From positions 57,563-121,562 of the forward strand of contig CAZUIT010000001.1 in assembly GCA_964620355.1 (NCBI GenBank): a DNA stretch of 64,000 nucleotides, read 5' to 3'. This document shows positions 2,390 through 52,194 of the stretch, piece by piece; the stretch's first letter is position 1; each line of letters opens with the position of its first letter. Made by a program: the position numbers and the translations under genes. This DNA comes from an uncultured Burkholderiales bacterium. Lineage in GTDB: Bacteria > Bacteroidota > Bacteroidia > UBA8524. The notes beneath the pieces were generated by a model that was not told where the DNA came from, ran no database searches, and worked only from the letters and a program-made list of their open reading frames with translations.

Positions 2390-5300
2390 ATGATGTCATT
2401 CAATAAGCTAAATACTCTATTTGGTTGGTTAAGCTTTGCCTTTGCCATGGTAGTCTATGCGCTCACCATTGAACCTACAGGCAGTTTGTGGGATTGTGGA
2501 GAGTTCATTTCCGCGGCCTATCGCTTGCAAGTTGTCCATCCTCCCGGTGCTCCTCTATTTCTTTTAATTGGGCGCTTTTTCAGCCTTTTTGCTGGGGGAC
2601 CAGAAAATGTGGCCTTCGCCGTAAATCTTTTATCAGGAACGACCAGCGCATTTTGTGTGATGTTTACCTTCTGGATCACTACCTATTTTGCGAAAAAAGC
2701 TATCGTTGGCAATGAAGCCGCTTCAGGAGCCAACCTTATCGCAATTATCGCTTCGGGTTTGGTTGCAGCTGGAACACTTACTTTCACCGACACCTTTTGG
2801 TTCTCAGCAGTAGAAGCTGAGGTATATGCCGCATCCTCTTTCTTTATGAGTTTCACCTTCTGGGCCATCTTGAAGTGGGAACGCGTATCAGACCAAGAAG
2901 GATCCAACAAATGGTTGGTTTTTATCGCCTATTTGGTAGGACTGGCTATTGGTGTCCATCTCTTGAACTTATTGGTAATTCCAGGTATCGTTCTGGTTTA
3001 CTACTTTAAAAAATACGAATACAACCGCAAAGGACTCCTATTTGCCCTTGCGGCTGGCTTTGCTTTGCTTTTTACCGTTCAGCTATTCATCATCCCAGGA
3101 ATCCCAAGCTTGGCGGCGAAAATGGACGTGATGTTTGTCAATAGCTTCGGACTTGGCTTCAATTCTGGCGTAATCTTCTTTGCCTTCCTCTTACTCATTC
3201 CGTTAATTTTCGGAATTTGGTATACTCAGAAAAATGCAAAGGTCATTTGGAATACAGTGCTTCTTTCCTTTGCCTTCATCCTCATCGGCTATTCATCCTA
3301 TGCCATGGTGGTAATTCGTTCTAATGCGAATACCCCTATCGACATGAATAATCCGGATGACCCTTTGACCTTGGTTTACTACTTAAATCGTGAACAATAC
3401 GGTGATAGACCTTTGCTAAAAGGCCCGCATTTTCAAACAGAAGTGGTGCGTTATGAAAAAGGAAAAGCACGCCGCATTCGAGGTGAAGAGAAATACGAAA
3501 TCACCAACTACGATTACGAAACCATCTATGACCCGAGCGAAACCATGGTATTTCCGCGGATTTACGATCAATCGGACCCTGGTCACGTAGATGGATATAA
3601 GAGCTGGGCGGAAATTCCAGAAGGAAAAACACCGAAAATGTCACATAACCTGCGCTTCTTCAGGAAATATCAATTGGGACATATGTACTTCCGATACTTC
3701 ATGTGGAACTTCGCTGGCCGCCAAAATGATGATCAAGGAATGCGCCCTACCGATATCTTGGAGGGGAACTGGATTTCCGGAATCAGCTTCTTGGATGCCA
3801 TGCGCCTCGGACCGCAAAGCAACTTGCCTAGCGACATGCAGAAGAACCCGAGCCGAAATACCTATTACCTCATTCCTTTCTTACTCGGTATTATCGGAAT
3901 CGCCGCTCAATACAAAAAAGACAAACACGGAACCTTGATTAATGGGGTCTTGTTTATCGTGACCGGTGCATTGCTAATCATCTACCTGAATCCACCGCCT
4001 TATGAGCCACGTGAGCGTGATTACGTTTTTGTGGGATCCTTCCAAGTATTCTGTACTTGGGTTGGTATGGGTGTTCTCGGACTTTATATTTTCCTCAAGA
4101 AATACCTGAACGCCAATTCGGCCGTAGCTGTGGCTGCAGTGATTGGTTTGGTGGGTAGTCCGATGTTAATGGGCTCACAAAACTGGGATGACCACGACCG
4201 CTCAGGCCGTTATATGAGTACTGATTTTGCGAAAAACTACCTCAAGTCTTGCTTGCCAAACGCCATTCTCTTTACAAACGGAGATAATGATACTTACCCG
4301 CTGTGGTATGTGCAAAACGTAGAAGGCTACCGTACAGACGTGCGTGTAGTAAACTTGAGTCTATTGAATGCAGCCGACTATGTAGAAAGCTTGCGTCAGA
4401 CCCATTACGATTCGAAACCGTTCAAACTTTCATTTGAGCAGGAGCAAATTCGTACAGGACGACGCGACCGTGTATTTGTGATTGAAATTGGAAACAAGGA
4501 GCAATACTACGAATTGGCTGATGTCATGAAATTTATTGCGAATGATGAGGACCCAAGAGCCAAACGCCGTGACCCAACTGGACAGGTAGCCAATTTCTTA
4601 CCTACCAAGAAACTGAAAATCACCATCAATAAAGATGAGATTATTCAAAAAGGAATCGTGTCAGAAAAATACCGCGATATGATTGTGGATGAAATCCAGT
4701 TTGAGGTACCAGGAAAGGCTTTAACACGTTCTAGCCTCATCTTGCTCGATATCATGGCCAATAACCTCTGGGATCGCCCGGTATACTTCACCACCACCAC
4801 AGGAAGTGAAACCTATGCTGGCCTACAAGACTATTTCCAATTGGATGGATTGACCTACAAAATTGTTCCAATAAAAACAGTAGCTCAAGGCCGTGAGGTG
4901 CAAGCCCGTGAATATGGATTTATCAATACCACCAAAATGTACGACCAGCTTGTCGACTCCTTTACTTGGGGCGGTATGGAAGATGGGTTTATGTGGGTGG
5001 ATGATAAAATGCGCCTTGTTCCTCGTGTGATGCGTGGTACATTCCTAAGAACTGCTCGTCAGCTAGTGGCGGAAGGAGAAAACGCCAAAGCCATCGCCCT
5101 TTTGGATGAGTGTTTGAAAGACATCCCGGATATGAATATGCCTTTCGAGGGATATAATATTGAAATTGGTGAGGCCTATTATTTGGCCGGCGATAAAGAA
5201 AAAGGTGCCGCAGTACTCGATATCATCACCAACCGTGAGCTGGAGAAAGGCAAATACTTGCAACAGTTCAAAGGAAACAAATACCCGCAAGCTACACAGC

Positions 5301-5410
5301 AACTGAATTACGCGAAACAAATCCTTGGTGCTGCACAACAAATTGCAACACAATATCAAGACATGGAGAGCGCGAATGAATACGGTGCGATGCTCACTGA
5401 ATTGAACTAA
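2390..5410 (+). CDS. DUF2723 family polytopic membrane protein (TMEM260 / protein O-mannosyltransferase-like, GT-C-like) with C-terminal TPR-like region
   Basis: The 1006-aa product has an N-terminal 400-aa multi-TM region (WDCGEF..HPPGAPLF motif near TM1) characteristic of DUF2723 proteins, followed by a large soluble region. It is the first gene of a translationally coupled operon. Confidence 0.6.
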   Translation: MMSFNKLNTLFGWLSFAFAMVVYALTIEPTGSLWDCGEFISAAYRLQVVHPPGAPLFLLIGRFFSLFAGGPENVAFAVNLLSGTTSAFCVMFTFWITTYFAKKAIVGNEAASGANLIAIIASGLVAAGTLTFTDTFWFSAVEAEVYAASSFFMSFTFWAILKWERVSDQEGSNKWLVFIAYLVGLAIGVHLLNLLVIPGIVLVYYFKKYEYNRKGLLFALAAGFALLFTVQLFIIPGIPSLAAKMDVMFVNSFGLGFNSGVIFFAFLLLIPLIFGIWYTQKNAKVIWNTVLLSFAFILIGYSSYAMVVIRSNANTPIDMNNPDDPLTLVYYLNREQYGDRPLLKGPHFQTEVVRYEKGKARRIRGEEKYEITNYDYETIYDPSETMVFPRIYDQSDPGHVDGYKSWAEIPEGKTPKMSHNLRFFRKYQLGHMYFRYFMWNFAGRQNDDQGMRPTDILEGNWISGISFLDAMRLGPQSNLPSDMQKNPSRNTYYLIPFLLGIIGIAAQYKKDKHGTLINGVLFIVTGALLIIYLNPPPYEPRERDYVFVGSFQVFCTWVGMGVLGLYIFLKKYLNANSAVAVAAVIGLVGSPMLMGSQNWDDHDRSGRYMSTDFAKNYLKSCLPNAILFTNGDNDTYPLWYVQNVEGYRTDVRVVNLSLLNAADYVESLRQTHYDSKPFKLSFEQEQIRTGRRDRVFVIEIGNKEQYYELADVMKFIANDEDPRAKRRDPTGQVANFLPTKKLKITINKDEIIQKGIVSEKYRDMIVDEIQFEVPGKALTRSSLILLDIMANNLWDRPVYFTTTTGSETYAGLQDYFQLDGLTYKIVPIKTVAQGREVQAREYGFINTTKMYDQLVDSFTWGGMEDGFMWVDDKMRLVPRVMRGTFLRTARQLVAEGENAKAIALLDECLKDIPDMNMPFEGYNIEIGEAYYLAGDKEKGAAVLDIITNRELEKGKYLQQFKGNKYPQATQQLNYAKQILGAAQQIATQYQDMESANEYGAMLTELN

Positions 5411-6765
5411 TGCGTCGTTTGTACGACATATTATTAAGCAAAAGCCGATTGACCATAGGGTTGATCGGCTTTGTGTTTATAATACTCTTGGTGAACCGCG
5501 ATTCTTGGAGAAGGCCCGATGCCATCCGCCATGATATGAGCAGCTACTATGGATATCTCCCCGCTGCTATCATCTACCACGACTTGAGTTTATCCTTTGC
5601 CCAAGACCCTAAATTTGGCGACCAATACACGTGGACCAATCCAGCCGAAAACGGGCGTGTATTCCGAATGACAATGGGAATTGCTGTGATGGAGGCCCCA
5701 TTTTTCATCATCGCCGACACCTATGTCCAACTTACTGGAAAAGAACGAAACGCCTACACTCCTCCCTATTTCCTTTTCACCTTTCTGGGCACCCTATTTT
5801 ACCTAATTTGGGGATTGCATTATCTCTTTCTACTCCTTCGCGGACGCTTTAATCCAACCATTGCGCTGCTCACCTGCTTAGCCATAGCATTCGCCACCAA
5901 CCTCTATTATTATACCTTGGACGAGGCCTTGATGTCTCATACCTTTAATTTCTTTCTTTATTCAGCCCTGCTCTTTTATAGCATCAAATGGCATGATACA
6001 CCCAAGATTAGCCACGCCCTTAAGCTAGGAATCATAATTGGTTTATTGACACTTATTCGTCCTATTCATTCGATCGCCATCCTCATTCCTCTTATGTATG
6101 ATGGACACTTGAAGAGTAAGTGGCAACTTCTGCTAAAACACCCCACTCAAATGCTAGTAGTGGCCATTATATCCTGTCTCGTGGTATTACCACAACTGTT
6201 CTACTGGAAATATTTAAGCAATAATTGGATAGTGTATACTTACGGAGACGAACACTTCTTTTTTAATGATCCACAAATACTCCGCGGACTATTTAGTTTC
6301 CGGAAGGGTTGGTTCATCTATACACCAATCGCTATTTGCGCAGTATTCGGAATCTTTCCTTTGATTAGAAAGGACAAATCCCTCCTTCTTGTATTTATCA
6401 CACTCATCCCCCTCTATATTTACGTGATTTTCAGCTGGTGGTGTTGGTGGTATGGCGGAAGTTTCGGCTCACGACCAATGATCGATATCTTGCCATTATT
6501 TGCTTTTCCACTTGCCGCCTTCTTCTTTTGGCTCCAAAAACGATTAAAACTCGGGTTATACCTCGGGGTAGGAATTCTTTTCATGTTAAGCGCGTTAAAT
6601 AGCTACCAAACCCGTCAATACAAATCCACTCTACTTCACTGGGATGGTAGCACTTGGTCACTGTACCAAAAGATCTTCCTAGACAACCATTGGCCAAAAG
6701 ACTATGATTCCTTGATTGATCCGCCGGATTATGAAGCCGCTAAAGAGGGGAAACGGGATATCTAG
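5410..6765 (+). CDS. polytopic membrane protein, GT-C-fold glycosyltransferase-like (hypothetical)
   Basis: The 451-aa product has about 10 predicted TM helices. Its start overlaps the upstream stop as TAATG. The specific family was not recognised. Confidence 0.45.
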   Translation: MRRLYDILLSKSRLTIGLIGFVFIILLVNRDSWRRPDAIRHDMSSYYGYLPAAIIYHDLSLSFAQDPKFGDQYTWTNPAENGRVFRMTMGIAVMEAPFFIIADTYVQLTGKERNAYTPPYFLFTFLGTLFYLIWGLHYLFLLLRGRFNPTIALLTCLAIAFATNLYYYTLDEALMSHTFNFFLYSALLFYSIKWHDTPKISHALKLGIIIGLLTLIRPIHSIAILIPLMYDGHLKSKWQLLLKHPTQMLVVAIISCLVVLPQLFYWKYLSNNWIVYTYGDEHFFFNDPQILRGLFSFRKGWFIYTPIAICAVFGIFPLIRKDKSLLLVFITLIPLYIYVIFSWWCWWYGGSFGSRPMIDILPLFAFPLAAFFFWLQKRLKLGLYLGVGILFMLSALNSYQTRQYKSTLLHWDGSTWSLYQKIFLDNHWPKDYDSLIDPPDYEAAKEGKRDI

Positions 6766-6815
6766 AAAGAGATAGATGCGGGATATTCCGAATTAATTCT
6801 GTTTTTTGCTGAGGA

Positions 6816-7529
6816 ATGGCCTCCTTAAACCTTGTTATCCCTTGCTATAATCCACCAAAAAATTGGGCGGAAGATTTAATCGCTCGGAGCAAAGCCTTTC
6901 GCGACTACCTAAATGAAGACTTTTCCCTCATTCTAGTCAACGATGCCTCCCAAGAAGGAGTAGATGAAGCTTCCATTCAATTGTTAAAAGATAAGATACC
7001 TGGTTTTCAATTTATCACGTATGATAAAAATCACGGGAAAGGATATGCCTTGAGGCAGGGAATGGCCCATATCGATCAAGGAAATATTCTGTATACCGAT
7101 ATAGATTTTCCCTACGAATTCGAAAGTATGAAGGCCGTATGCGACGCCTTATCTGCAGGGAGTGATATTGCCGTTGGAACGCGAAATGACCTGTATTATG
7201 AAAACACACCTACAAAACGTACGCTAATTTCAAAATTTCTTCGTTGGATTCTTCGCAGGGTATTTCGCTTACCCATTACCGACACCCAATGTGGACTCAA
7301 GGGATTCAACCAAAAAGGCCGGGAGGTATTTATGCAAACCCGAATTGAACGCTTCCTCTTCGATATGGAATTTATTGCCCTCGCTAGCCGAAACAAAGGC
7401 ATTACGATGGACCCAATAGCGGTAAGATTGAGAAGTAATATTCAGTTTTCTAAAATGAATACGAAGATTCTTATCACAGAATCGGTAAATTTATTCCGGA
7501 TATTCTGGCTAACCCACTTTCGCAGATGA
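6816..7529 (+). CDS. family 2 glycosyltransferase (polyprenyl-phosphate sugar synthase / Dpm1-like)
   Basis: The N-terminus (VIPCYN..ILVNDAS..) and a DxD-like motif (TDID) match the GT-A fold. The 237-aa product is soluble. Confidence 0.7.
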   Translation: MASLNLVIPCYNPPKNWAEDLIARSKAFRDYLNEDFSLILVNDASQEGVDEASIQLLKDKIPGFQFITYDKNHGKGYALRQGMAHIDQGNILYTDIDFPYEFESMKAVCDALSAGSDIAVGTRNDLYYENTPTKRTLISKFLRWILRRVFRLPITDTQCGLKGFNQKGREVFMQTRIERFLFDMEFIALASRNKGITMDPIAVRLRSNIQFSKMNTKILITESVNLFRIFWLTHFRR

Positions 7530-9646
7530 GCTTTCTTAAAGCACCCTTTCTCTCCTTTGTACTGAGCGTTCTCCTGCTTAGCTTATTCTACCCTGCGGAG
7601 CTCAGCCAACCCAACTCCTACTATTTTTCAAACTCAGGAGATGGACAAAAGAACTACTATACTTTTGCCTATCATCAGCAATACGACAGCAGCTTTAGTC
7701 ACTTTGGCGGGATGGCTTATCCCTATGGCGAACATATTGTCTTTACCGATGGGCAGCCTGGGTTAGCGCTATTTGCATGGACCTTCTCTGGATTAGCACC
7801 TTATTCCATTGGGCTGATAAACCTATTTATGCTCCTTTCTGTTGGACTTTGTGCGTGGATCCTCTGCAAACTCTTTATTCGATTGGGTATGACACGCGGC
7901 GCAAGTTTGTTTGCGGCCCTTGCGATTGCACTCATGAGCCCTCAGATTAGCCGCTTAAGTGGCCATTATGCCCTCGCTTATTGTTTTGTGGTTCCTTGGT
8001 TTGTCTATGTCTCCTTTATTTATGCCGAGAAACCATCTCTCAAAAGGTCGGCATGGGTATTTATCGCCATTGCAGCCATAAGCAGTTTACACCTTTACTA
8101 TTTTCTTATGGCCGCTGCATATATTGGATTCTACTATTTGATAGAAGCCTTTAGACGCAAAAACCAACCTCTTTGGAAATATTCAGTCGCATTTCTTGTC
8201 CAGGTACTTCTCCCCTTTCTGCTCTATATGTTATGGATGAAAAGTACCGATATGGTGAGCGATCGTCCGAATATTCCGTATGGCATGTTGGAATATATGG
8301 CGTTGTGGGAAGGCGTATTTTTACCGTTCCACTTTTACCACGATTCTACCATTTTTCAGACATTGGGCGTACGTTTTGTCAATTCAGAAGCCATTGCATA
8401 TGTAGGTTGGCCAGCGACCATCTATTTTATCTATTTCCTTCTCAGTCGCCTGAAAGTATTCTTCTACAAAAAGAAAATGCTAACTCTACTGAAAAGCCAT
8501 AGCATCTTTTTCGCTGGTTTTTTAGTCTTTTTAATGGCAGCCACCTTGCCCTTTTTATTGAATACGCCTTTCGGTGAAAAATACGGTGGACCCCTGCTCC
8601 AATTCAGAAGCTTAGGCCGATTGAGCTGGGTTATTTTCTACACATTGAACATTTTTATGTTTGTTCAATTTGCCGGTACCCGAAAGCGTATTGGAATGAT
8701 AATAAGCACTTTGGCTACCCTTGTTTTAATCTTCCAAGGTTTACGGTATAATGCCGATTATAGCGATCGATTGGGACAAAAAATTCAACCTATAGCAGGA
8801 CAAGAACTTCTTCTTTCTTATGGTGACCATGTAATCTTTCCTCTGCCTTATTTCCATATTGGCTCCGAAAATATTAGCAGTCCAATCCCAGATGAATACA
8901 TGGCTGGACCAACGATGGCTTTAAGTCTTTCAAGCGGGCTCCCTACATTTGCCTCCATGATGAGTCGAACTTCATTGAGTCAGACTTTAAACCTTTTTGA
9001 GATGGCGTATAATTTATCTGGACCTTTGATGGAAGAAGATAAACCGTGGATGGTGCTCAAGTCTCCTTCTTATTCAAACAGGGTTTCATCATTGCTTCCT
9101 CCTGCCATTTTTTCTATAGATAATCTACAAGCCCATTCTGTTAAAGCCACACAATGGAAATCATGGAAAGAAAATCAACGAAGAGTTGATAGCCTGAAAA
9201 ATGACATGTTATACTATGCCTCTTTTGATGACAGAAACGCAGAGGGCTTAGCAAATAGCAGAGGGGCTGGTTTTACTGAAGAATCCGATTTGCTTTTGTA
9301 TGAAGGCCCTGGCTTTCAGGATACTGCCGACTTATCTATTTGGATCAATGCAAAAAATGATGGATTTCGATTCTTTCATATCCGCATAGAAAACACAAAA
9401 ACAGGGGAGAATTGGCAGCTTGAACCAGGAAGCAATTTTGATAATATTATGGATGGATTTGCTCGTGTTGTTATACGAAACCAACTCCTCAATTTTCCTT
9501 GTAAGGTTTCTTTATACAATAGTGGACCATTACATGTTGAATTTGTTGCTGACGAATGTGTGATTCAAAAAAGCAAAAAACCGTATCAATATACCTTAAA
9601 CGGGTATCAGTTTACCGAAGAATTTGTTTTTAAGCCGGTTCAATAA
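7526..9646 (+). CDS. large polytopic membrane protein with C-terminal soluble domain (hypothetical, GT-C-like)
   Basis: The 706-aa product has an N-terminal 400-aa region with many TM helices and then a soluble domain. Its ATGA start overlaps the GT2 stop. Confidence 0.45.
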   Translation: MSFLKAPFLSFVLSVLLLSLFYPAELSQPNSYYFSNSGDGQKNYYTFAYHQQYDSSFSHFGGMAYPYGEHIVFTDGQPGLALFAWTFSGLAPYSIGLINLFMLLSVGLCAWILCKLFIRLGMTRGASLFAALAIALMSPQISRLSGHYALAYCFVVPWFVYVSFIYAEKPSLKRSAWVFIAIAAISSLHLYYFLMAAAYIGFYYLIEAFRRKNQPLWKYSVAFLVQVLLPFLLYMLWMKSTDMVSDRPNIPYGMLEYMALWEGVFLPFHFYHDSTIFQTLGVRFVNSEAIAYVGWPATIYFIYFLLSRLKVFFYKKKMLTLLKSHSIFFAGFLVFLMAATLPFLLNTPFGEKYGGPLLQFRSLGRLSWVIFYTLNIFMFVQFAGTRKRIGMIISTLATLVLIFQGLRYNADYSDRLGQKIQPIAGQELLLSYGDHVIFPLPYFHIGSENISSPIPDEYMAGPTMALSLSSGLPTFASMMSRTSLSQTLNLFEMAYNLSGPLMEEDKPWMVLKSPSYSNRVSSLLPPAIFSIDNLQAHSVKATQWKSWKENQRRVDSLKNDMLYYASFDDRNAEGLANSRGAGFTEESDLLLYEGPGFQDTADLSIWINAKNDGFRFFHIRIENTKTGENWQLEPGSNFDNIMDGFARVVIRNQLLNFPCKVSLYNSGPLHVEFVADECVIQKSKKPYQYTLNGYQFTEEFVFKPVQ

Positions 9647-11168
9647 GCTGGTTATGCTCGTTCTTTAAAGCAAGAATTTCTTCCACGATAATCCGATTAT
9701 TCGATAAACGAGGCACTTTATGCTGTCCACCCAATTTGCCCCGTACGCGAAGCCACTGTCTGAATGAACCTCGTTCTAAGCTCACTAACTTAGGTGCTTG
9801 AAGTGCCATATTTTTGTAGCGCTTGGCCTCATAATCAGAGTTTACTTCCTTGAGGGTTTGATCAAGGATTTCCATAAAACGCAGTTCATTTTCAGGGGCC
9901 TGTTCAAATTCGATGAGCCACTCATGCCCAGCATCCGCTCCTTCATCCATATACACCGGAGCAGCAGTATAATCCGACACAATTGCGTTTGTTGCCTCAC
10001 ACGCTTTTGCAATTCCTCGTTCGGCATTTTCAATCACCAACTCCTCGCCAAAGGCATTTATAAAAAGTTTTGTGCGGCCTGTAATTTGGAAGCGATAAGG
10101 CCGCACACCCGTGAACTTCAAGGTGTCACCGATGATATAGCGCCAAAGTCCAGCATTGGTGCTTATTACAACCGCATAGTTTACGCCTATCTCAACCTCC
10201 CACAATGGAATGGCCTTCGGGTATTCATCAAAAATCTCTTCCGCTTTTACAAACTCAAAGAAGATTCCATAGCCCGGCATAAGATACATATCATGTACAC
10301 CCAAATCTCCTTGAATCCCAAAAAACCCTTCGGAAGCATTATACGATTCTAAATATTGAATGCTCCTTGATGGCATCAGACGCTGAAATCGTTCACGGTA
10401 TGGAGTAAAGCTTACGCCACCATGTATGTACAACTCAAGGTTAGGCCATATTTCGTGCAAATCCCGTTTTCCAGTCATTTCAAACAGGCGTTCGATTAAA
10501 ACTAAGGTCCAGGTAGGAACCCCAGAAATACTGGTTACATCTTCATTAACTGTTGCCAAAGCCATTTTCTCGAGCTTCTCTTCCCATTCTTCCATCAATG
10601 CGATGGATTTGTCAGGTGTGCGAAGAAATTCTACCCAGAACGGCGTATTTGCCAAGACAACGGCAGATAAATCTCCATAAAAGGAGTTTTCGGAAAAGGT
10701 ATTCACCTTATGGGAGCCTCCAATAACCAAGCTTTTACCATTAAACATTTCTGTTTCTTGGAAGCTATTACAGTACATGGTTAATACGTCTCTACCCCCT
10801 TGATAATGACATTTATCCAAGGCCTCAAAACTAACAGGAATGAATTTACTCTTATCGGAAGTGGTTCCACTGGATTTGGCAAACCACCGAATATCTGAAT
10901 GCCAGATGATATTTTGCTCACCTCGCATCGTTCTTTCAATTAATGGCTTAATCGCTTCATAATCGCGAATAGGCACACGTTCCTGAAAGTCTTCATAGCG
11001 CGTAATTGACTTAAAGTCGTATTGCTTTCCAATCTCTGTATTTTTTGCATCTCCCACGAGCGACATGAGTGTTGCCTGCTGCACATCATCCGCCAAACGA
11101 ATTTGTGCTTCCATTTCAGGCCAGCGCTTTTTAAAGTACCAAGAGAAAAATGACGACTTGAGCGACAT
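9630..11168 (-). CDS. GH3 auxin-responsive promoter family protein (acyl-acid amido synthetase-like)
   Basis: The 512-aa product has an N-terminus (FKKRWPEMEAQIRLADDVQQ...FAKSSGTTSDKSKFIPVS) that matches bacterial GH3-family proteins common in Bacteroidota. Confidence 0.75.
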   Translation of the reverse strand: MSLKSSFFSWYFKKRWPEMEAQIRLADDVQQATLMSLVGDAKNTEIGKQYDFKSITRYEDFQERVPIRDYEAIKPLIERTMRGEQNIIWHSDIRWFAKSSGTTSDKSKFIPVSFEALDKCHYQGGRDVLTMYCNSFQETEMFNGKSLVIGGSHKVNTFSENSFYGDLSAVVLANTPFWVEFLRTPDKSIALMEEWEEKLEKMALATVNEDVTSISGVPTWTLVLIERLFEMTGKRDLHEIWPNLELYIHGGVSFTPYRERFQRLMPSRSIQYLESYNASEGFFGIQGDLGVHDMYLMPGYGIFFEFVKAEEIFDEYPKAIPLWEVEIGVNYAVVISTNAGLWRYIIGDTLKFTGVRPYRFQITGRTKLFINAFGEELVIENAERGIAKACEATNAIVSDYTAAPVYMDEGADAGHEWLIEFEQAPENELRFMEILDQTLKEVNSDYEAKRYKNMALQAPKLVSLERGSFRQWLRVRGKLGGQHKVPRLSNNRIIVEEILALKNEHNQLIEPA

Positions 11169-23914: not shown

Positions 23915-24922
23915 ATGAAAGCACGTATACTATTCAAAAAGGAGCTTTTTATGGGCTCCTTTTTACTTTTATCCTTAGTTGGTAACAGTCAGCACCAATG
24001 CCTGACGGCCCATTTTCCATTCAACGGAAACGCTTCTGATTCTACCTCTTCTGGAGTGCAGACCAGCATGCAAGGAACATTTTCGTATGTTGCCAATTCT
24101 AATGGAGCACCAAACAGTGCCCTTCATTTTAATGCCACAGATAGTTATATCGACCTGAATGGTAGCCAGCCCGTAATTACGACCACAGAATTTTCAATTT
24201 CTATTTGGGCCAAAATGGATGGAGCGCCAGGAGGAAAGGATTTCAATGGGACACTTTTTGAACAACGAGATGACAATGCCACGAGTGCATCGAAATCAAT
24301 GATTGTATTGATGCCTGACGATAATAATGGAAATTGCATCTTCACCATGCGATCAAGCATTAGCGTAAACGCTGGTACCGACTTCATTTCAATTCCTCGC
24401 CAAGATTATAACGAATGGCACCATTATTTGGCAACAAAAGACGCGGATAGCCTCTATCTCTACATTGATGGTGTAAAAGCGGGGTCCGCCCCATATACCC
24501 AAACTGGAGATTTCAAGACAAGCATCGATAATGTTGGCATTGGCGTGCATCGCAACTTTGGTCAGATTAAAGGACTATTTAATGGCGATATTGACCAAGT
24601 AAAACTCTACGATTGTGCTGTAAAACCAGCTGATATTGACGACCACGATATTACGAGCTTTCGTCATATAGCATCAGCAATGAATTTTGAAGTTTTTCCA
24701 AACCCAGCTAAATCAAGCTGCCAAATTCAGTTTCCTAATCCAAATGATGAATCATTAACCCTCCGTGTTTTTGATGCTCAAGGCAAATTAATCAAAGAAG
24801 TTCCGCAGATTAAAGGCGAATCTTACGAATTTATGCGAGATGGCCTAACCAGCGGTGTATACTTTTTTAAACTAAGCTCTTTTGAGAATTCAGGCAGCTA
24901 TCAGCGCGTGGTATTCGATTAA
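23915..24922 (+). CDS. secreted LamG/concanavalin-like domain protein with T9SS C-terminal sorting domain
   Basis: It has a signal peptide and a LamG-like core (DSLYLYIDGV..). The C-terminus FEVFPNPAKSS...GVYFFKL is a T9SS CTD. Confidence 0.65.
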   Translation: MKARILFKKELFMGSFLLLSLVGNSQHQCLTAHFPFNGNASDSTSSGVQTSMQGTFSYVANSNGAPNSALHFNATDSYIDLNGSQPVITTTEFSISIWAKMDGAPGGKDFNGTLFEQRDDNATSASKSMIVLMPDDNNGNCIFTMRSSISVNAGTDFISIPRQDYNEWHHYLATKDADSLYLYIDGVKAGSAPYTQTGDFKTSIDNVGIGVHRNFGQIKGLFNGDIDQVKLYDCAVKPADIDDHDITSFRHIASAMNFEVFPNPAKSSCQIQFPNPNDESLTLRVFDAQGKLIKEVPQIKGESYEFMRDGLTSGVYFFKLSSFENSGSYQRVVFD

Positions 24923-26800: not shown

Positions 26801-28522
26801 ATGGTAGACGCTACTCTTATTTCTCGCGCGAAAGCATGGCTTAGCGAAAGCTTTGATGAAAACACACGCAAAGAAGTTCAGCACCTCATTGATGAGAACG
26901 GAACTGAGTTGGTAGATGCATTTTATAAAGACCTTGAATTTGGTACGGGTGGTCTCCGCGGAATCATGGGCGCCGGCACCAATAAAATGAACATCTATAC
27001 CCTAGGAATGACTACCCAAGGCCTAGCAAACTATTTAAACCAAGTTTATTCTGGTGCGAAAAGCAAGGTTGTAATTGCCCACGATTCACGAAATAATAGC
27101 CGGTTATTCGCTGAAACAACAGCAAATGTCTTTTCAGCGAATGGCATTCATGTTTTCCTCTTTGAAAGCCTTCGCCCCACTCCAGAATTGTCTTTTGCTG
27201 TACGTGAGTTGAATGCCCAAGCAGGAATCGTGATTACCGCTTCACATAATCCCAAGGAATACAATGGATACAAAGTCTATTGGAACGATGGCGGCCAACT
27301 CGTACCGCCACACGATAAAAACACCATTGAAGAAGTGCGCAAAATCGCAGGGCCTGATCAGGTAAAATTTACTCCTGATACAAGCATCATCTATAGCCTA
27401 GGTGCGGAGATGGACGAAAAATACTGGAACCGAATTGCCCAATTGAGCCTCAACCAAGCAGGGAAAGATTCCTTGAAGATTGTTTATACTCCAATTCATG
27501 GCACCGGTATCCAAGGCGTTCCTCAGGTATTGGCAAAAATGGGATTCGCCCATGTTGATGTATTGGAGAGCCAGAAGATGCCCGATGGAAACTTTCCTAC
27601 CGTCCACTCACCTAACCCTGAAGAGGCGGCGGCATTGAACCTTGCCCTAGAACGAGCAAATGAAACCGGTGCCGACCTTGTTCTTGGAACGGACCCAGAT
27701 GCAGACCGTGTAGGAATTGCGGTACGCGGACCAAAAGGAAAACTGCACTTGATGAATGGCAATGAAACTGCCGCAATCCTCGTCCATTATATCTTATCAC
27801 AAAAGAAACATCGCCGCGAATTACATGGGAATGAATTCGTTGCTAAGACCATCGTTACCTCGGATATCATTGCAGATATTGCTAAGAACTTTGGCGTGCG
27901 TCTTTATGAATGCCTCACGGGCTTCAAATATATTGCTGAGCTAATTCGCGAAAAAGAAGGGCGTGAGAAGTATTTGGTAGGCGGTGAGGAGAGTTATGGC
28001 TACCTTATTGGCGACTTTGTTCGCGACAAAGATGCAGTGAGCTCCGCAGCCATGATTGCAGAAGCTGCAGCCTGGGCGCATAGCCAAGGAATGACACTTC
28101 TTGACTACCTCGAACAAATCCATCGCGAAACCTATGCTTACCAAGAAGCCTTGGTATCCATCACTAAAAAAGGGAAAGCAGGCGCAGAAGAAATTCAACA
28201 AATGATGGCCGATTTTCGCAGCAAACCGATACAAAGTATCAATAGCCACCCGGTAATTATTACCCGAGATTATGCAACAGGAATCGAGCATGACATGAGA
28301 AATGGCGATAAACGTCCTTTGGGCTTGCCCTCTTCAAATGTATTTCAGTTTGTATTGCACGACCAAAGCATTATCACAGCGCGGCCATCAGGCACGGAGC
28401 CGAAAATAAAGTTCTATATCAGCGTGAGGGATAAAATTATGCGAGACGATACCTACGAGGTTGACCGCGTTAAACTCATCCATAAGATTGCTGGAATAAA
28501 AAATGCACTCGGACTGAACTAA
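26801..28522 (+). CDS. phosphoglucomutase/phosphomannomutase (alpha-D-phosphohexomutase family)
   Basis: It has the active-site motif TASHNPKEYNGYK. The 573-aa length is PgcA-like. Confidence 0.85.
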   Translation: MVDATLISRAKAWLSESFDENTRKEVQHLIDENGTELVDAFYKDLEFGTGGLRGIMGAGTNKMNIYTLGMTTQGLANYLNQVYSGAKSKVVIAHDSRNNSRLFAETTANVFSANGIHVFLFESLRPTPELSFAVRELNAQAGIVITASHNPKEYNGYKVYWNDGGQLVPPHDKNTIEEVRKIAGPDQVKFTPDTSIIYSLGAEMDEKYWNRIAQLSLNQAGKDSLKIVYTPIHGTGIQGVPQVLAKMGFAHVDVLESQKMPDGNFPTVHSPNPEEAAALNLALERANETGADLVLGTDPDADRVGIAVRGPKGKLHLMNGNETAAILVHYILSQKKHRRELHGNEFVAKTIVTSDIIADIAKNFGVRLYECLTGFKYIAELIREKEGREKYLVGGEESYGYLIGDFVRDKDAVSSAAMIAEAAAWAHSQGMTLLDYLEQIHRETYAYQEALVSITKKGKAGAEEIQQMMADFRSKPIQSINSHPVIITRDYATGIEHDMRNGDKRPLGLPSSNVFQFVLHDQSIITARPSGTEPKIKFYISVRDKIMRDDTYEVDRVKLIHKIAGIKNALGLN

Positions 28523-35334: not shown

Positions 35335-35727
35335 ATGAGCACAAATCCGTACATAATTCTTGTCGATGACAACGAGATTGATCTATTTCTTCACGAAAAG
35401 CTCATTCGCCTAAGTGGTATTAGTGATAATATTGATCGATTCACGACTGCCCGAGAGGCCTTGGACTTCATTCGTAAAAAAGGACCACTTCCTGATATTA
35501 TTCTGCTCGACATTCAAATGCCTGAATTGGATGGATTCGATTTCTTGCGAGAATATGAGCATATTGAGCATATTGATCGCGAAAACACCACCATATTTAT
35601 GGTGTCTTCCTCTTTAGACTTTGGCGATATCTCTAAGGCTAAAGCCAACCCCCTAGTTAAGTCATTCATTAAAAAGCCCCTTAACGTGAAGGAACTGAAA
35701 GACGAAATATCGACTTCGGCGAACTAA
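35335..35727 (+). CDS. stand-alone response regulator receiver protein
   Basis: It is REC only ([24 protein letters not shown]). It starts 1 nt after the previous stop. Confidence 0.8.
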
Positions 35728-36440
35728 CGGAACAAATTATATTTAAGTATGCACCAGATGGCACGAAAGCCATCCTTCCAACCAATTTTCTTTCCTTCCT
35801 CATAGGTTCTGCCATAATACGAGATGCCAACTTCATAAATGCGGATGTTTTCGATACGCGCCAGCTTAGCGGTTACCTCAGGCTCAAACCCAAAACGTTT
35901 CTCATTGAGCTCCAAACCTTGAATTAATTCCCGCTTGAATGCCTTATAACACGTTTCCATGTCGGTGAGGTTCAAGTTGGTAAACATATTTGAGAGTAGT
36001 GTTAAAAACTTGTTTCCTATTGTATGCCAGAAAAAGAGGATTCGATGCGGATTACCACCCATAAACCGAGAACCATAGACCACATCGGCCACCTCTTCAC
36101 GGAAAGGTTTTAACACATCATTGTATTCACGTGGATCATACTCCAAATCAGCATCCTGAATGATAACTACATCGCCAGTTGCTTTCTCAATCCCCGTATG
36201 AAGAGCTGCTCCCTTGCCTTTATTTACCTCATGAGAATAAAAGGTAATGGACAAATCAGGATTGTTCACCATGTAATTTTCTACGGCCTCAACAGTATTG
36301 TCTTTCGAGCAATCATTCACAATGATTACTTCCTTTTCAATATCGCCAATTAAGTCAACTGCCTTCACCTTATCAAGGATAAAATGAATAGTCCTTCCCT
36401 CATTATAGGCCGGAATTACGATGGATAATTTCTTGATCAA
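35724..36440 (-). CDS. family 2 glycosyltransferase, polyprenyl-phosphate mannose/glucose synthase (Dpm1-like)
   Basis: [21 protein letters not shown] and the QDADLEY DxD motif match the Dpm1-like GT2 family. Confidence 0.75.
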
Positions 36441-40323: not shown

Positions 40324-41786
40324 AAACTGATTTTTACAAACGCAAACTTGCGATCTTTTGAAGTAGGAATCAACAGCGTATTTGCATCAAGCTGTCTAGA
40401 CTCCGTAGGCACAATTGAAATAAAGGAACTTTGATTTCCAAAAAGTAGCTCCTGCTCCAAGGTATTATCATTCTTCAGTGTATAATTCAATACCCCACCA
40501 TCACCTTTAATTTTATCATTAAACAGAATATGAATAGAATCCTTTTTCTTGAAAATAGTAAATGAAGAATAGTACCCATAATCATTCACGGATGATTGTC
40601 CTTTGCTAATGACCTTGGCCCATTCTTGTATACCCTTTGCGTCTATTGCTAAAACAAAAATTTTCCCATAAATATAGACACTCCTGCTGCTCACTTGGGC
40701 AATTCCATTCACATAGTAAGTATTCGATTCTTGAGAAACAGTAAACTCTTCTCCAAATAGAACGTAGCCTCCATCGCTTCGCAAAACCATGTCGCGGAGT
40801 ATAAAATCTTGCAACTCACCCCCTTCATCAGCCACCCTTTCGCCTGCAATATCATGTACAAAATCACGCGTAAAAGGAACTAAATCATGATGAATAAGGG
40901 AATAGTCCATTCGACTAATTACAAAGTCCATTGTGCCCGCACTCAATTTACGTGACTTAAAGGAATACAATGCGCAAACAGTAACACGGTGATTTACATC
41001 ATCCAAAGCCATTATTGGCCCATTGAGATAGGTATCAGAAAAGTTGAGGTAATAATCATACCACACATTAGCATTATTCAATACATGCAAATGAACCCCT
41101 ATCCGTTCAGGAGTGCTGCGGTTCCATTCACTGTTGATTCCGCTTGTTAGCACAAAGGCATTGCCCAAGGAATCAACGAGCACTTGTTCAATTTGAAACT
41201 CATTTTCTTCATAGTCCATCACTTCTCGGCGCGAGGTAATACGTTCAAATCGGCGATTATACACCTGAACATTCAGGTAACTTTTTCCTTTTGGAGCCTT
41301 TTCAGTGAAGAGCACTACGAAATGTGTTTGGTTTTCGTTTTCAGTAACATAGAAATCACCATCATCATTAAAGTTCTTCGGCGCGGCAATAGTTACGGGT
41401 ATTTCAGGACCTTTCTTCTCGGCCTCGGGGTCCAATATCTCAACAAAAAGCTCGAGTTTTTCTGAATTATAATTGAACCGACTCTTCCACATGGCTAAGC
41501 CATTCGGCAAAACGAAGGCATTTACCAAGGCGACTCCTCGTTTGTTGGGTAATTTTTTACTGAAGTCGAGCCCCATACTTTCCCGGTAACGTTCGATGAT
41601 CACTCGACTTCGCAATTGATAGCCTCTTCCTCGCAAAACGTAGTAGCCATAGTCGTTTGACCCAATAATTCGGTTATAAGAAGTACGGTTTCGAAACCGC
41701 TCCATATTCGACCATTCCGTCTGCTGAGCCAGGAGAATATTTCCCAGCCCAAGGAGAATAGAAAGAAGTAGCCAAGGTCGCATCAT
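40320..41786 (-). CDS. secreted hypothetical protein
   Basis: The 488-aa product has the signal peptide MMRPWLLLSILLGLGNILLAQQ. I recognised no domain. Confidence 0.5.
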   Translation of the reverse strand: MMRPWLLLSILLGLGNILLAQQTEWSNMERFRNRTSYNRIIGSNDYGYYVLRGRGYQLRSRVIIERYRESMGLDFSKKLPNKRGVALVNAFVLPNGLAMWKSRFNYNSEKLELFVEILDPEAEKKGPEIPVTIAAPKNFNDDGDFYVTENENQTHFVVLFTEKAPKGKSYLNVQVYNRRFERITSRREVMDYEENEFQIEQVLVDSLGNAFVLTSGINSEWNRSTPERIGVHLHVLNNANVWYDYYLNFSDTYLNGPIMALDDVNHRVTVCALYSFKSRKLSAGTMDFVISRMDYSLIHHDLVPFTRDFVHDIAGERVADEGGELQDFILRDMVLRSDGGYVLFGEEFTVSQESNTYYVNGIAQVSSRSVYIYGKIFVLAIDAKGIQEWAKVISKGQSSVNDYGYYSSFTIFKKKDSIHILFNDKIKGDGGVLNYTLKNDNTLEQELLFGNQSSFISIVPTESRQLDANTLLIPTSKDRKFAFVKISF

Positions 41787-43624
41787 TCGATAAATAATTT
41801 TTCAGTGTACAATATGGATTTGCCGGATTGAATGCGCAATATATACATACCAGAGGCTTTCGCTCTAGGTTCAAAGAGGATGAAGTTATTTCCTTTGGTC
41901 ATGCCTCCATTCCAAACGGTTTCTATGCGTTGGCCAGCCGTGGAATATAAGGCGATATCAATTTGCATGCTTGTTTGCAACTCCAAACGAATTTTTAAAC
42001 TTTGAAAAACTGGATTTGGGAAGGCTTCGAAATGATCTACTGCAAAATTTCGGTTTATCGTATCCAAGTCTCCTTCGAGCTTAAACACCCGATTTTCCCA
42101 ACGCTCATTAGCACCAACACCGGCTGCACTAAACCAAATGGTAGGATTAGCTCCGCCTGGAACAAAAACACCAGCGCAATAATCGCCCCAGCGGTCTAAT
42201 TCATTCGGAATAAGGTCCATCTCACTTAGACCTTCATAAACGGTAACAAGCGGATAGTCCTTCATTTGATCATCGACATATAAATAACCAATCGATGGAT
42301 AATCTATCTCAGAAGAAAAGACTAAGGCCAGCACAACTGCACGGTTCGCATTATTGGCAGCGAAACTCACCGGAACGGCATAGGCCATATCCTTGGTCGT
42401 TTGTATGGTTCGTGCCTCACATACCAATTGTTCAGGATCAACCCTTCCATAGTAAATCGCATTACGAAGCGACTTGCCCTCGGTGCTCAAGCAAAAATGG
42501 ATTAACCCATTCCTCAAAAATGCACCAGATATTCGGCAATCTCCTCCATCCAGCATGGAATTGCTTTGTTTCTGTATAGCATCTGGCGGAAGGGAATAAG
42601 CACCCGCCGACACTTCCGCTCGATCAATAATACCTTTTGTAGGATCTAATTTCATCAAATAAAAACCATCGCCACCTCGATCTTTGGAGCTGATGAAATA
42701 AAGATTGGACCCAATATATCCGTCATACGCATTGGCTGGAACCATATTAAATGCCTCCTTTTTCTCGGTCACTTTCAAATCATCATACAGCATACTCGAA
42801 ACGGTGCTCCCAGTCAGCAAAGCGTCTTTTTCCAAAACATACAGCAAGCTTCCATCAAATCCTCCTTCCGATTGATGAAACTGATTTAAGCTAATGGCCA
42901 AATGATTTGCGCTAACACCCAGCTGAGGAAAATCGGCCATGAGTCCTCTTTGATACGGATCGCCTCTGAAAGAATATACATGCCAGCCTTGCAAGGGATT
43001 GGCTTCTTTCGATACAAAAAGCAATAAGCGTGAATCTGCGGAAGTACGCCCATGAAGGATAATCATATAAAAACGATCACGCTGAACATCATAGTAAACA
43101 CGCGGGTCGAAAAAACTACTCGTGAGGCTGGGGTCATTTGCCAATTGTTTAAAGTTCCGCAACATAAGCCGCTGACCTGAGCTATTTTGAACCGTGTAAT
43201 TGGCATTTACCACACTCACTATATAGCCAAGAGGAGAAACCGCTAAGCCATTGTCCATGGGCGTTACATTCTGCGAAGGGTTGACGGTAAAGTTCTCCGT
43301 AATTCGAAAACTGTCGGGGTCATTTTTATGCTGGGGAGCCAGGTGATAAAGTGCCTGCTTCAACAGATTGAGACTGTCTTTTATCCGCCGTTTCTCTGTG
43401 GCGTGGGTACCATGTCCAAAGGGCTGATTGTAGACTGCTACAAACATTTGGCTATCCCTTTCATCGCTGTCTGGAGCTAAGGGCGCAATGCGGAAAGTAC
43501 TGTCTGGTTTAGTTAATAAAGATTGCCAAACCCCTTGCTGTTGCCCAACAAGATTCATCTGTATTCCAAGAAGCTGAAACAAGATTAGCAAGGCAGAAAG
43601 CAAGATTGTATTTTTGCAGTTCAT
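41783..43624 (-). CDS. secreted hypothetical protein with T9SS C-terminal sorting domain
   Basis: The start is at ATG 43624 (MNCKNTILLSALLILF, a signal peptide); the longer ORF extension lacks a signal. The C-terminus FEAFPNPVFQS...GMYILRIQ is a T9SS CTD. Confidence 0.6.
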   Translation of the reverse strand: MNCKNTILLSALLILFQLLGIQMNLVGQQQGVWQSLLTKPDSTFRIAPLAPDSDERDSQMFVAVYNQPFGHGTHATEKRRIKDSLNLLKQALYHLAPQHKNDPDSFRITENFTVNPSQNVTPMDNGLAVSPLGYIVSVVNANYTVQNSSGQRLMLRNFKQLANDPSLTSSFFDPRVYYDVQRDRFYMIILHGRTSADSRLLLFVSKEANPLQGWHVYSFRGDPYQRGLMADFPQLGVSANHLAISLNQFHQSEGGFDGSLLYVLEKDALLTGSTVSSMLYDDLKVTEKKEAFNMVPANAYDGYIGSNLYFISSKDRGGDGFYLMKLDPTKGIIDRAEVSAGAYSLPPDAIQKQSNSMLDGGDCRISGAFLRNGLIHFCLSTEGKSLRNAIYYGRVDPEQLVCEARTIQTTKDMAYAVPVSFAANNANRAVVLALVFSSEIDYPSIGYLYVDDQMKDYPLVTVYEGLSEMDLIPNELDRWGDYCAGVFVPGGANPTIWFSAAGVGANERWENRVFKLEGDLDTINRNFAVDHFEAFPNPVFQSLKIRLELQTSMQIDIALYSTAGQRIETVWNGGMTKGNNFILFEPRAKASGMYILRIQSGKSILYTEKLFIE

Positions 43625-43633
43625 ATTAACGCA

Positions 43634-44827
43634 TTGAAGGGCAAGATACACGATACACATAAAAAACAGGAAACAGCAGTTCTTGTTGCGATCGATTATA
43701 AATTTAAACCAAAAGGACAGGCCGACGAATACCTCGATGAGCTTGAATTTTTGACTGAAACCGCGGGCGCAAAAACCCTCAAGAAATTTACGCAAAAGTT
43801 AGACCATCCCTTTTCTGCCACCTATGTGGGAACAGGGAAACTTGAAGAAATCAAGCTCTATGTGCAAGAACATGAGCCAAGTATGGTCATTTTTGACGAT
43901 GAGTTATCGCCGAGTCAAATTCGAAATTTAGAGAATACACTCAATGTAAAAATTCTCGACCGTAGCAATTTGATCCTCGATATTTTTGCTTCACGTGCTC
44001 AAAGTGCACAAGCAAAAACCCAAGTAGAGTTGGCCCAAATGCAGTACTTACTTCCACGGCTTACCCGGATGTGGACGCATCTAAGTAAGCAACAAGGAGG
44101 TATTGGAATGAAAGGTCCAGGAGAAACACAGATTGAAACCGACCGACGCATCATTCTCGATAAAATTAGTTTGCTCAAAAAGCGTCTTGAAAATATAGAC
44201 AAACAAAACCTCACACGTCGAAGCAACCGTGGAGGCATTGTTCGAGTTGCCCTAGTAGGGTATACCAACGTTGGAAAGTCCACCATTATGAATGTGCTGA
44301 GTAAATCGGATGTGCTGGCTGAAAACAAGTTATTCGCCACGCTCGATTCAACAGTAAGAAAAGTAGTGCTTGAGAACACCCCATTTCTTTTATCGGACAC
44401 CGTTGGGTTTATCCGCAAACTACCCCATCAGCTTATTGAATGTTTTAAGTCAACATTAGACGAGGTGCGTGAAGCCGACTTACTTATCCATGTGGTCGAC
44501 ATTTCACACCCCAACTTTATGGAGCATATTCAGGTGGTCAATCAAACGCTTGAGGATATTAAAAGCGACCATAAGCCTGTAATCATGGTATTCAACAAAA
44601 TCGACATGTATCATCCACAAGCTCGTGGGCTGGATGAAGAGACCGGTGAAGAACTTCCTGAATTAAGTATGGAAGAAAATTTAGATCACCTCAAAAAGAG
44701 TTGGATGTCGAAAGAAAATACACCGGTAGTTTTCATCTCTGCACAGAAAAAACAAAATATTGAGGAACTCCGCGACAAACTGACTAAAACTGTGGCCTCT
44801 TTGTACGAGTTAAATGCGCTAGGTTAA
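43634..44827 (+). CDS. hflX: GTPase HflX
   Basis: It has the HflX N-domain followed by the G1 motif GYTNVGKST and the G3 DTVGF and G4 NKID motifs. The start may be TTG 43634 or a nearby codon. Confidence 0.85.
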   Translation: MKGKIHDTHKKQETAVLVAIDYKFKPKGQADEYLDELEFLTETAGAKTLKKFTQKLDHPFSATYVGTGKLEEIKLYVQEHEPSMVIFDDELSPSQIRNLENTLNVKILDRSNLILDIFASRAQSAQAKTQVELAQMQYLLPRLTRMWTHLSKQQGGIGMKGPGETQIETDRRIILDKISLLKKRLENIDKQNLTRRSNRGGIVRVALVGYTNVGKSTIMNVLSKSDVLAENKLFATLDSTVRKVVLENTPFLLSDTVGFIRKLPHQLIECFKSTLDEVREADLLIHVVDISHPNFMEHIQVVNQTLEDIKSDHKPVIMVFNKIDMYHPQARGLDEETGEELPELSMEENLDHLKKSWMSKENTPVVFISAQKKQNIEELRDKLTKTVASLYELNALG

Positions 44828-49297: not shown

Positions 49298-49419
49298 GCT
49301 CACTAATTTGGTTCTTGAATGAATGAAGCGATGAAATGGTTGCATTTGATTGATTTCTCTTAAAAATGCCGGTTAATAAATAGGGGTTTAACATTGCGAA
49401 TACTTGAGATAAGAATAAG

Positions 49420-50361: not shown

Positions 50362-50550
50362 AATACTTGCTCGACAATAAAGGTACCTATTCATTGAATA
50401 TCTCTAATTCAAGGGTAACGTTTCAACCTTCACCAAGAATGGACGTGTTTTCGCAAGTGGCGAAACAGAGGTGCAAACAAATTTTGGAAAGCTATATTTC
50501 AGGTTCTGTGCAGACTTCAATCCATTCTTATTCCCATTTCACATACAGAG

Positions 50551-51156: not shown

Positions 51157-51222
51157 TTTACTTTTTCTGCACAGGCAAGATGGCTTTACAAGCTCCTATA
51201 TACAACGGGATTAACCCTGTTT

Positions 51223-52033: not shown

Positions 52034-52194
52034 CCGTCTTCCAAAATGGGGATTTGAATCAGAAGTTTTGTTCAGAACGAACCAAAGACGACTGTTAGCA
52101 TACCCCGACCACTCTTTTACTTCGCAGCCGCGTGGCGTCTTGTAAACCTTGGCGCGTATCTCCACAATAAGCCAATGTTTAGCGCGGCTCAGAA

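Follow-up and report, generated by a model that had tools for sequence, protein, structure and literature searches.

We analyzed a 64,000-nucleotide stretch of contig CAZUIT010000001.1 (the window), which belongs to an uncultured bacterium of the phylum Bacteroidota, and focused on four adjacent plus-strand genes, G1 to G4, that encode putative enzymes of extracytoplasmic glycosylation. Their open reading frames (ORFs) begin at positions 2390, 5410, 6816, and 7526, where the initial annotation had placed them, and they were considered real genes because each has hundreds to thousands of homologs. G1 (2390–5410, 1006 amino acids) encodes a TMEM260-like (DUF2723) glycosyltransferase of the GT-C fold class. 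This protein has a membrane core and a Rossmann-like region in the periplasm, and its C-terminus is probably TPR-like. G2 (5410–6765, 451 amino acids, approximately 11 transmembrane helices) encodes a compact membrane protein of predicted GT-C fold that is distantly PMT_2-like. G3 (6816–7529, 237 amino acids, no transmembrane helix) encodes a small cytoplasmic glycosyltransferase of family 2 (GT2), a candidate polyprenyl-phosphate sugar synthase. G4 (7526–9646, 706 amino acids, approximately 11 transmembrane helices) encodes a DUF6311-like protein of predicted GT-C fold. Its periplasmic part includes an alpha/beta region, and its C-terminal domain (approximately residues 560–706) is a beta-sandwich resembling a carbohydrate-binding module (CBM).

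All four genes had initially been described as coupled by TAATG or ATGA overlaps. This arrangement was present at two of the three junctions: G1 and G2 overlap by 1 nt in TAATG at 5410, and G3 and G4 overlap by 4 nt in ATGA at 7526–7529. The G2 stop codon ends at 6765 and the G3 start codon begins at 6816, leaving a 50-nt spacer without overlap. Scans for sigma-70 promoters and for terminators gave only background-level matches and delimited no operon. The Bacteroidota -7 motif TAnnTTTG was not enriched in the window and did not occur in the spacers at 2316–2389 and 6766–6815. Since all these scans remained at background, the boundaries of the transcription unit are not defined by signals.

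Human TMEM260 is a protein O-mannosyltransferase (PDB 9rql; PMC10214176; bioRxiv 10.64898/2026.03.17.711096). G1 matched Pfam family PF11028 with an E-value of 8e-71 and 238 bits (cutoff 24.2) over profile positions 1–176 of 179, which confirmed the DUF2723 assignment of the initial annotation and corrected the accession given there (PF10936). G1 also matched human TMEM260 (PDB 9rql) at 2e-14 in two aligned stretches. In TMEM260, mutational data showed that the donor-site residues D52 and H67 are essential, and cryo-EM led to the proposal that D441, in the luminal Rossmann-like domain, is the catalytic base (bioRxiv 10.64898/2026.03.17.711096). D52 and H67 correspond to D35 and H50 of G1 in the high-confidence HMMER stretch, and R264, Y267, and R355 of TMEM260, which bind phosphate and sugar, fall outside both stretches. 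Matches to TPR_14, TPR_6, and TPR_19 were found at approximately residues 885–950 of G1, below threshold (E 0.003–0.02), and TPR_19 is precomputed for three G1 homologs. When sub-domains of G1 and G4 were scanned separately against Pfam, only TPR matches below threshold were obtained. By analogy with TMEM260, G1 is most likely a protein-glycosylating candidate.

Homologs of G1, approximately 1000 amino acids long, are very widely conserved in Bacteroidota. The window contains a single DUF2723 gene. Two DUF2723 paralogs with approximately 48% mutual identity were present in related genomes, in one case in tandem (L167, 7001–12995; L169, 7001–10021; contigs of 129499 and 147076 bp).

G2 had no match in Pfam or NCBIfam, and the PMT_2 model (PF13231) of Pfam was not matched even at E ≤ 5. 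PMT_2 was matched by two of 45 G2 homologs (best E 3e-7), and one NCBI record labels a G2 homolog as "glycosyltransferase family 39 protein". The family is large, with 4333 representatives at 50% identity (E ≤ 1e-30). PDB chains were searched with G2 and G4, as single sequences and as profiles, without a meaningful match, and fold comparison alone was informative. The AlphaFold2 model of G2, based on 45 homologs, had a predicted local distance difference test (pLDDT) score of 91.8. Its top Foldseek matches were ALG12, DPY19, STT3, ALG9, ArnT, AftA, PglB, and Emb, with at least the top 20 all being GT-C structures at a probability of approximately 1.0 and a best TM-score of 0.53, against ALG12. 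The G4 model (pLDDT 91.4) matched AftD, PglB, STT3, DPY19, Pmt4, and ArnT; at least the top 20 matches were again all GT-C structures at a probability of approximately 1.0, and the best TM-score was 0.41–0.44, against AftD. The C-terminal beta-sandwich of G4 matched CBM22, CBM11, and CBM16 in Foldseek, and weak matches to CBM_4_9 were found in four G4 homologs. An aspartate just after the first transmembrane helix was invariant in both families (D42 of G2 across 45 homologs and D39 of G4 across 48 homologs), and hhalign aligned the Asp-x-x-x-YY segments that follow this helix in the two families (E 1.4e-4, probability 52%). On the evidence of these models, G2 and G4 are predicted to have the GT-C fold.

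The three large proteins are polytopic with at least 11 transmembrane helices, and G2 carries no family annotation, features that would also suit transporters or permeases. Transporter structures (MFS, SLC, and H+-PPase) matched the G2 and G4 models at a Foldseek probability of at most 0.1 and a TM-score of at most 0.16, whereas more than 20 GT-C structures matched at approximately 1.0, and G1 matches TMEM260 by sequence. This fold evidence ruled out a transporter identity for G2 and G4, and for the large membrane proteins taken together we consider such a role extremely improbable. The description of three large GT-C-type membrane proteins in the initial annotation therefore held, for G1 through PF11028 and the TMEM260 structure and for G2 and G4 through models that match only GT-C enzymes.

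The assignment of the G4 family to DUF6311 depends on the version of the Pfam model. In a direct scan with PF19830.4, G4 scored 19.9 bits (cutoff 27) and none of 47 homologs matched; PF19830.5 (DUF6311) is listed among precomputed annotations for most G4 homologs and for genes in loci L081–L087. An assignment of G4 to YfhO was rejected, as no match to the YfhO model of Pfam was obtained for any of 48 members of the G4 family, with E-values up to 1 allowed. Many members of the G2 family are approximately 580–660 amino acids long and carry an extra C-terminal domain (P0060, P0036, and P0044, with a precomputed DUF7910/FRG1-like annotation in P0060); the G2 of the window is the short form without this domain. 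Residues 342–350 of G2 (6433–6459) form an invariant periplasmic-loop motif, SWWCWWYGG, which superficially resembles the WWDYG motif of STT3 and PglB, with the acidic residue absent.

G3 matched PF00535 at 1.8e-11 and 44.7 bits. Its best full-length PDB matches were dolichol-phosphate mannose synthase (DPMS) of P. furiosus, followed by ArnC and GtrB. D95-I-D97 of G3 aligns with the DAD motif of DPMS and is conserved in 28 orthologs, as is the motif TDIDFPY. The maximum KD19 hydropathy of G3 was only 0.83, and the protein was therefore predicted to lack a transmembrane helix. On sequence grounds, G3 is closest to polyprenyl-phosphate glycosyltransferases of the Dpm1/ArnC/GtrB/PpgS type, in agreement with its earlier description as Dpm1-like, and is a candidate synthase of this kind. 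Its scores against the curated NCBIfam equivalog models (ArnC, PpgS, PgfS, AglJ, and DPMS) are far below their cutoffs, so that G3 represents a separate subfamily, marked by TDIDFPY.

We then compared the arrangement of the four genes among homologous loci. G2 homologs were sampled from 80 species-level loci of GTDB genomes, and G4 homologs from 64 distinct metagenomic loci. The full G1-G2-G3-G4 block was found only in close relatives (L081, L082/L083, and L088). G1 adjoined G2 in two of the 80 G2 loci, both from close relatives, and a G4 homolog lay within two genes of a G2 homolog in two. In the G4 loci outside the close clade, G1 was never present (0 of approximately 60 distant loci). Distant G1 homologs (46–55% identity) adjoin rimP-nusA-infB, a SpoU methylase gene, or another DUF2723 paralog, and lack a glycosylation partner. 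Identity to L081 was 96.5% for G1, 96% for the neighboring TrmB, 93% for the GH3 gene, 86% for G3, 72% for G4, and 66% for G2. This gradient fits a G1 that behaves like a constrained housekeeping gene and G2 and G4 that diverge in the manner of surface-glycan enzymes.

A different pattern was obtained for G3 and G4. A G3-type GT2 gene lay immediately upstream of the G4 homolog, on the same strand, in 20–22 of approximately 56–60 distinct loci, and in these 20–22 distant loci G4 is only 27–35% identical. These GT2 proteins scored 190–290 bits against G3, compared with 22–44 bits for generic GT2 proteins, and the two genes mostly overlapped by 1–29 nt. Another GT2 gene adjoined the G4 homolog in approximately 17 further loci. 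The window contains a second small GT2 gene outside the four-gene block, GT2b (35724–36440, minus strand), whose product has a PF00535 match at 2.3e-32, a DADLE motif, and no transmembrane helix; the gene is flanked by polA and a response-regulator gene. We scored each small GT2 from the full set of loci against both G3 and GT2b. G3-type proteins adjoined G4 only (25 loci). GT2b-type proteins adjoined a G2-family gene in 17 loci, were found elsewhere in the G2 flanks in 18 more, and adjoined a G4 homolog once. By this comparison, GT2b is the ortholog of the GT2 that normally neighbors G2-family genes in other Bacteroidota, and for this reason it is the probable donor synthase for G2. The stable unit across Bacteroidota, as judged from these loci, is a G3-type GT2 together with a G4-type GT-C protein, usually with overlapping stop and start codons.

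These results do not support the proposal of one conserved four-gene functional operon made in the initial annotation, as the partners of G1 and G2 vary and only the G3-G4 pair is widely kept; variable partners were an outcome that the initial annotation had itself named as contrary evidence. On balance, we believe that the four genes are probably a chance-assembled neighborhood of separate modules and not one conserved pathway. The opposing possibility is that a single polyprenyl-phosphate sugar made by G3 is used by G1, G2, and G4, sequentially or for different targets. The genes are co-directional and tightly packed, with two overlaps and a 50-nt spacer, and the block is intact in three relatives in which the identity of G2 and G4 falls to 54–60%. 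Genes of the G2 and G4 families also co-occur in a few distant loci (L100, L102, L103, L115, L116, and L014), and GT-C enzymes can be donor-promiscuous (PMC11127046). However, approximately 20 kb of flanking sequence is syntenic in the same relatives (AnmK, aminotransferase, MenE-like, and TrmB on one side; GH3, M28 peptidase, CDP-alcohol transferase, and sensor kinase on the other), so that retention of the block is explained by general synteny. Even among close relatives the block is not uniform. L002 has TrmB, G1, and G2 followed directly by GH3, without G3 or G4, and L084 has G1 and G2, then a gap (9276–9702) that holds only the last 19 codons of G3, and an intact G4 immediately after it; this relative has thus lost G3 and kept the three genes that G3 would serve. 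Furthermore, in no locus outside the clade is G1 linked to a GT2, G2, or G4, and the GT2 subtype that accompanies G2 homologs is a different one, also encoded in this window. We therefore regard a single shared pathway as unlikely.

A 14-bp hairpin (5441–5472, plus strand) with a T-rich tract directly after it lies within the G2 ORF, 31 nt in. It is a candidate for a terminator or an attenuator acting between G1 and G2. The minimum free energy of its RNA is -24.9 kcal/mol (z = -6.8). In every relative with G2 after G1, 13–14 of the 14 pairs are kept; 96% of cells were paired in six relatives, compared with 19–56% in slid controls. Two compensatory pair changes were observed, one of them with a non-synonymous substitution. 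The hairpin was confined to genomes with G2 directly after G1 and was absent from approximately 80 distant G2 homologs, in which a mean of 6.4 of 14 pairs equaled the shifted control. These observations, which come from only six distinct sequences, are suggestive, and the hairpin may reduce the transcription that passes from the conserved G1 into the variable genes downstream.

The data show the gene structure, the GT-C folds of the models, the conserved acidic residues, and the partner-specific linkage; the lipid-sugar donor, the identity of its sugar, the flippase, and all acceptors are inferred. The most probable interpretation, in which we place moderate confidence, is that three separate extracytoplasmic glycosylation functions, which follow one enzymatic logic, have come to lie side by side in this lineage. 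In the cytoplasm, G3 would load polyprenyl (undecaprenyl) phosphate with the sugar of a nucleotide-sugar donor, and a flippase encoded elsewhere would move the lipid-sugar to the periplasmic face. G4 would then attach this one sugar to a glycan of the periplasm or the cell surface, for example lipopolysaccharide or exopolysaccharide, held by its CBM-like domain, and G3-G4 would constitute a self-contained two-gene cassette for glycan modification. A glycan acceptor is suggested for G4 because of the precedents of CBM-bearing GT-C enzymes (GT136, AftD, and Emb) and because of MBOAT, AlgX-like, and PMT_2 neighbors. G2, a compact GT-C protein without a large soluble domain, would probably act on a membrane-embedded lipid-linked acceptor, like ALG- and ArnT-type enzymes, with a donor that probably comes from GT2b and not from G3. 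For both G2 and G4, a lipid-phosphate-linked sugar donor is suggested by the fold and by the conserved adjacency to small GT2 genes. G1 would most likely hold periplasmic proteins through its Rossmann-like and TPR region and transfer a single sugar to their Ser/Thr residues.

Further proteins of PMT_2 type, an unannotated polytopic family of 480 amino acids, MBOAT (AlgI-like) genes, and AlgX-like SGNH genes were observed in loci with G2 or G4 homologs (L006, 797–2239; L012, 11303–12859; L154, 4565–6112; L073, 6374–7795; L125, 12287–13708; L057, 7776–9434). The recurrence of these neighbors points to surface-polysaccharide modification islands.

Several observations weigh against the interpretation of three separate functions with lipid-linked donors. 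The G1/G2 overlap together with the conserved hairpin argues for co-transcription and co-evolution of G1 and G2 within the clade, and thus for some functional tie between them. G3, which starts just 50 nt past G2, could feed G2 or G1 as well. Neither the block, which has no spare ORF, nor the scanned ORFs of the window yielded a flippase, of the GtrA type or any other. Likewise, no small-membrane-protein family recurs beside G3-G4 in homologous loci, and an EamA transporter gene lies two genes away in six loci. The donor-synthase role of G3 is weakened by its NCBIfam matches to ArnC, PgfS, PpgS, and AglJ, which reach 16–36 bits against cutoffs of 325–529; its matches to polyprenyl-phosphate synthases have E-values of approximately 1e-7 and lie far below every NCBIfam cutoff. 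The glutamine of the DxDxQ metal/nucleotide site is replaced by P99 in G3 and by proline in at least 95% of orthologs. The similarity of the modeled G4 C-terminus to CBMs does not prove glycan binding. For G1, the correspondence between D441 of TMEM260 (RGDLP) and D632 (NGDND) falls in the second HMMER stretch, which is weak (13.8 bits, i-Evalue 0.09). Finally, the searched literature, queried for DUF2723, DUF6311, PF11028, and PF19830, contained no characterized bacterial protein, in accordance with the earlier statement that bacterial DUF2723 members are experimentally uncharacterized, and no biochemistry for any of the four families.

The lack of the DPMS-type glutamine is also compatible with another assignment, in which G3, as an ordinary GT2, elongates a cytoplasmic glycan carried on undecaprenyl diphosphate and G4 is a polymerase, a ligase, or an oligosaccharyltransferase-type GT-C enzyme that uses the flipped oligosaccharide en bloc. 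The lowest-E NCBIfam match of G3 is to the N-terminal part of PgaC/IcaA (3.6e-9), and PglB and STT3 are high among the structural matches of G4. The TM-scores of PglB and STT3 are low, however (0.33–0.39), and reflect the common GT-C core, and the best full-length PDB matches of G3 are all enzymes acting on polyprenyl monophosphate. In addition, no initiating phosphoglycosyltransferase, Wzx, or other oligosaccharide-assembly gene accompanied the cassette in the inspected loci. Transfer of a preassembled oligosaccharide thus appears improbable, and transfer of a single sugar from polyprenyl phosphate by the G3-G4 pair is preferred.

A broader role can be proposed for G1. YfhO has been suggested as the O-oligosaccharyltransferase of Bacteroidota, but it is absent from P. 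gingivalis, and the enzyme had not yet been identified in July 2026 (bioRxiv 10.64898/2026.07.27.740950). DUF2723 proteins of the G1 type might be the enzymes that place sugar on Ser/Thr of periplasmic proteins in this phylum, either by initiating an unrecognized single-sugar O-glycosylation, like TMEM260, or by supplying the transferase still lacking from the general O-glycosylation system found across the phylum. This idea arises from the wide conservation of G1, its much stronger constraint relative to its neighbors, the retention of the three TMEM260 residues that can be mapped, the frequent presence of two paralogs, and the vacancy left by the oligosaccharyltransferase. We offer it as a long shot.

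The surroundings of the block were also surveyed. MenE-like ligase and TrmB genes lie upstream on the same strand as G1–G4, with a 74-nt gap on the TrmB side of G1. A convergent GH3/OlsH-like gene (9630–11168, minus strand) shares 17 nt with the 3' end of G4; its product matches the NCBIfam model of OlsH, lyso-ornithine lipid synthetase, at 403 bits (cutoff 620). Distant G4 homologs were located directly beside a GH3 gene in two loci (L139, 364–2073; L150, 6078–7772), and the adjacency of GH3 and G4 may be a coincidence or a lipid-related link. A phosphoglucomutase/phosphomannomutase gene is present at 26801–28522 without linkage to the block. Three genes for cargo of the type IX secretion system, recognized by Por_Secre_tail (23915–24922, 41783–43795, and 46709–49345), are likewise not linked to it. 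Five consecutive ORFs on the minus strand at 49420–52596 (324, 201, 145, 179, and 133 amino acids) had no Pfam match.

Bacteroidota extensively decorate the proteins and glycans of their envelope, and the extracytoplasmic membrane enzymes involved largely lack assignment. The present analysis provides testable partners: a DUF6311-like family with the TDIDFPY subtype of GT2, an unmodelled PMT_2-like family with a second GT2 subtype, and, without a partner gene, the bacterial TMEM260 homologs, which preserve the three alignable TMEM260 residues. These pairings indicate which two genes should be co-expressed or deleted jointly, and they caution against treating the four-gene neighborhood as a single pathway.

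Among known systems, PpgS (Rv3631) and Rv3779 of Mycobacterium, which we take to be a polyprenyl-phospho-GalNAc synthase and a GT-C enzyme decorating arabinogalactan, combine a small GT2 of approximately 230–240 amino acids with a GT-C enzyme acting on a cell-envelope glycan, as proposed for G3-G4. G3 matches the NCBIfam PpgS model over residues 6–203, but the score of 30.6 bits against a cutoff of 370 does not make it an equivalog, and the phyla differ. In the Firmicutes, teichoic acids are glycosylated by CsbB and YfhO, again a GT2 paired with a GT-C enzyme. YfhO is another phylum-wide GT-C protein of Bacteroidota, from which G1, G2, and G4 differ in belonging to distinct families (for G4, 0 of 48 members match the YfhO model).

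The Gtr-type periplasmic systems consist of three components, namely the GtrA flippase, the undecaprenyl-phosphate glucose synthase GtrB, and a GtrC-type GT-C enzyme (PMC11127046). The G3-G4 pair resembles them in that a GT2 proposed to load sugar on polyprenyl phosphate stands beside a GT-C protein acting outside the cytoplasm, and in that the pair is conserved and translationally coupled. In contrast, G3 has no transmembrane anchor whereas GtrB has one or two, no flippase gene is linked to G3-G4, and no sequence similarity was detected between G4 and any GT-C enzyme with a name or a solved structure. GT136 ORF12 of Citrobacter youngae is a GT-C enzyme with a CBM, the role of which has been described (PMC11127046). 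Like this enzyme and the mycobacterial AftD and Emb proteins, G4 joins a GT-C membrane core to a C-terminal CBM-like beta-sandwich, and AftD is its best structural match. G4 differs from all of these in lacking sequence homology and in having a GT2 as the donor synthase on its side, in place of a phosphoribosyl-pyrophosphate-dependent route, and it is much smaller than AftD.

G1 shares with TMEM260 the N-terminal GT-C module of PF11028, the residues equivalent to D52 and H67, and an aspartate in the Rossmann-like region (D441, from a weak alignment), and it may also share a TPR-like C-terminus. It is longer (1006 compared with 707 amino acids), with an extra insertion of approximately 200 residues between membrane segments (residues ~310–510). 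Unlike those of TMEM260, its substrates cannot be IPT domains of metazoan receptors, and its donor would be a bacterial polyprenyl-phosphate sugar. The enzymatic logic of a GT2 combined with a GT-C enzyme is already well known from Gtr, ArnC/ArnT, PpgS/Rv3779, CsbB/YfhO, and the systems treated in PMC11127046; what is new here is the assignment of three uncharacterized families to the GT-C fold and their specific GT2 partnerships.

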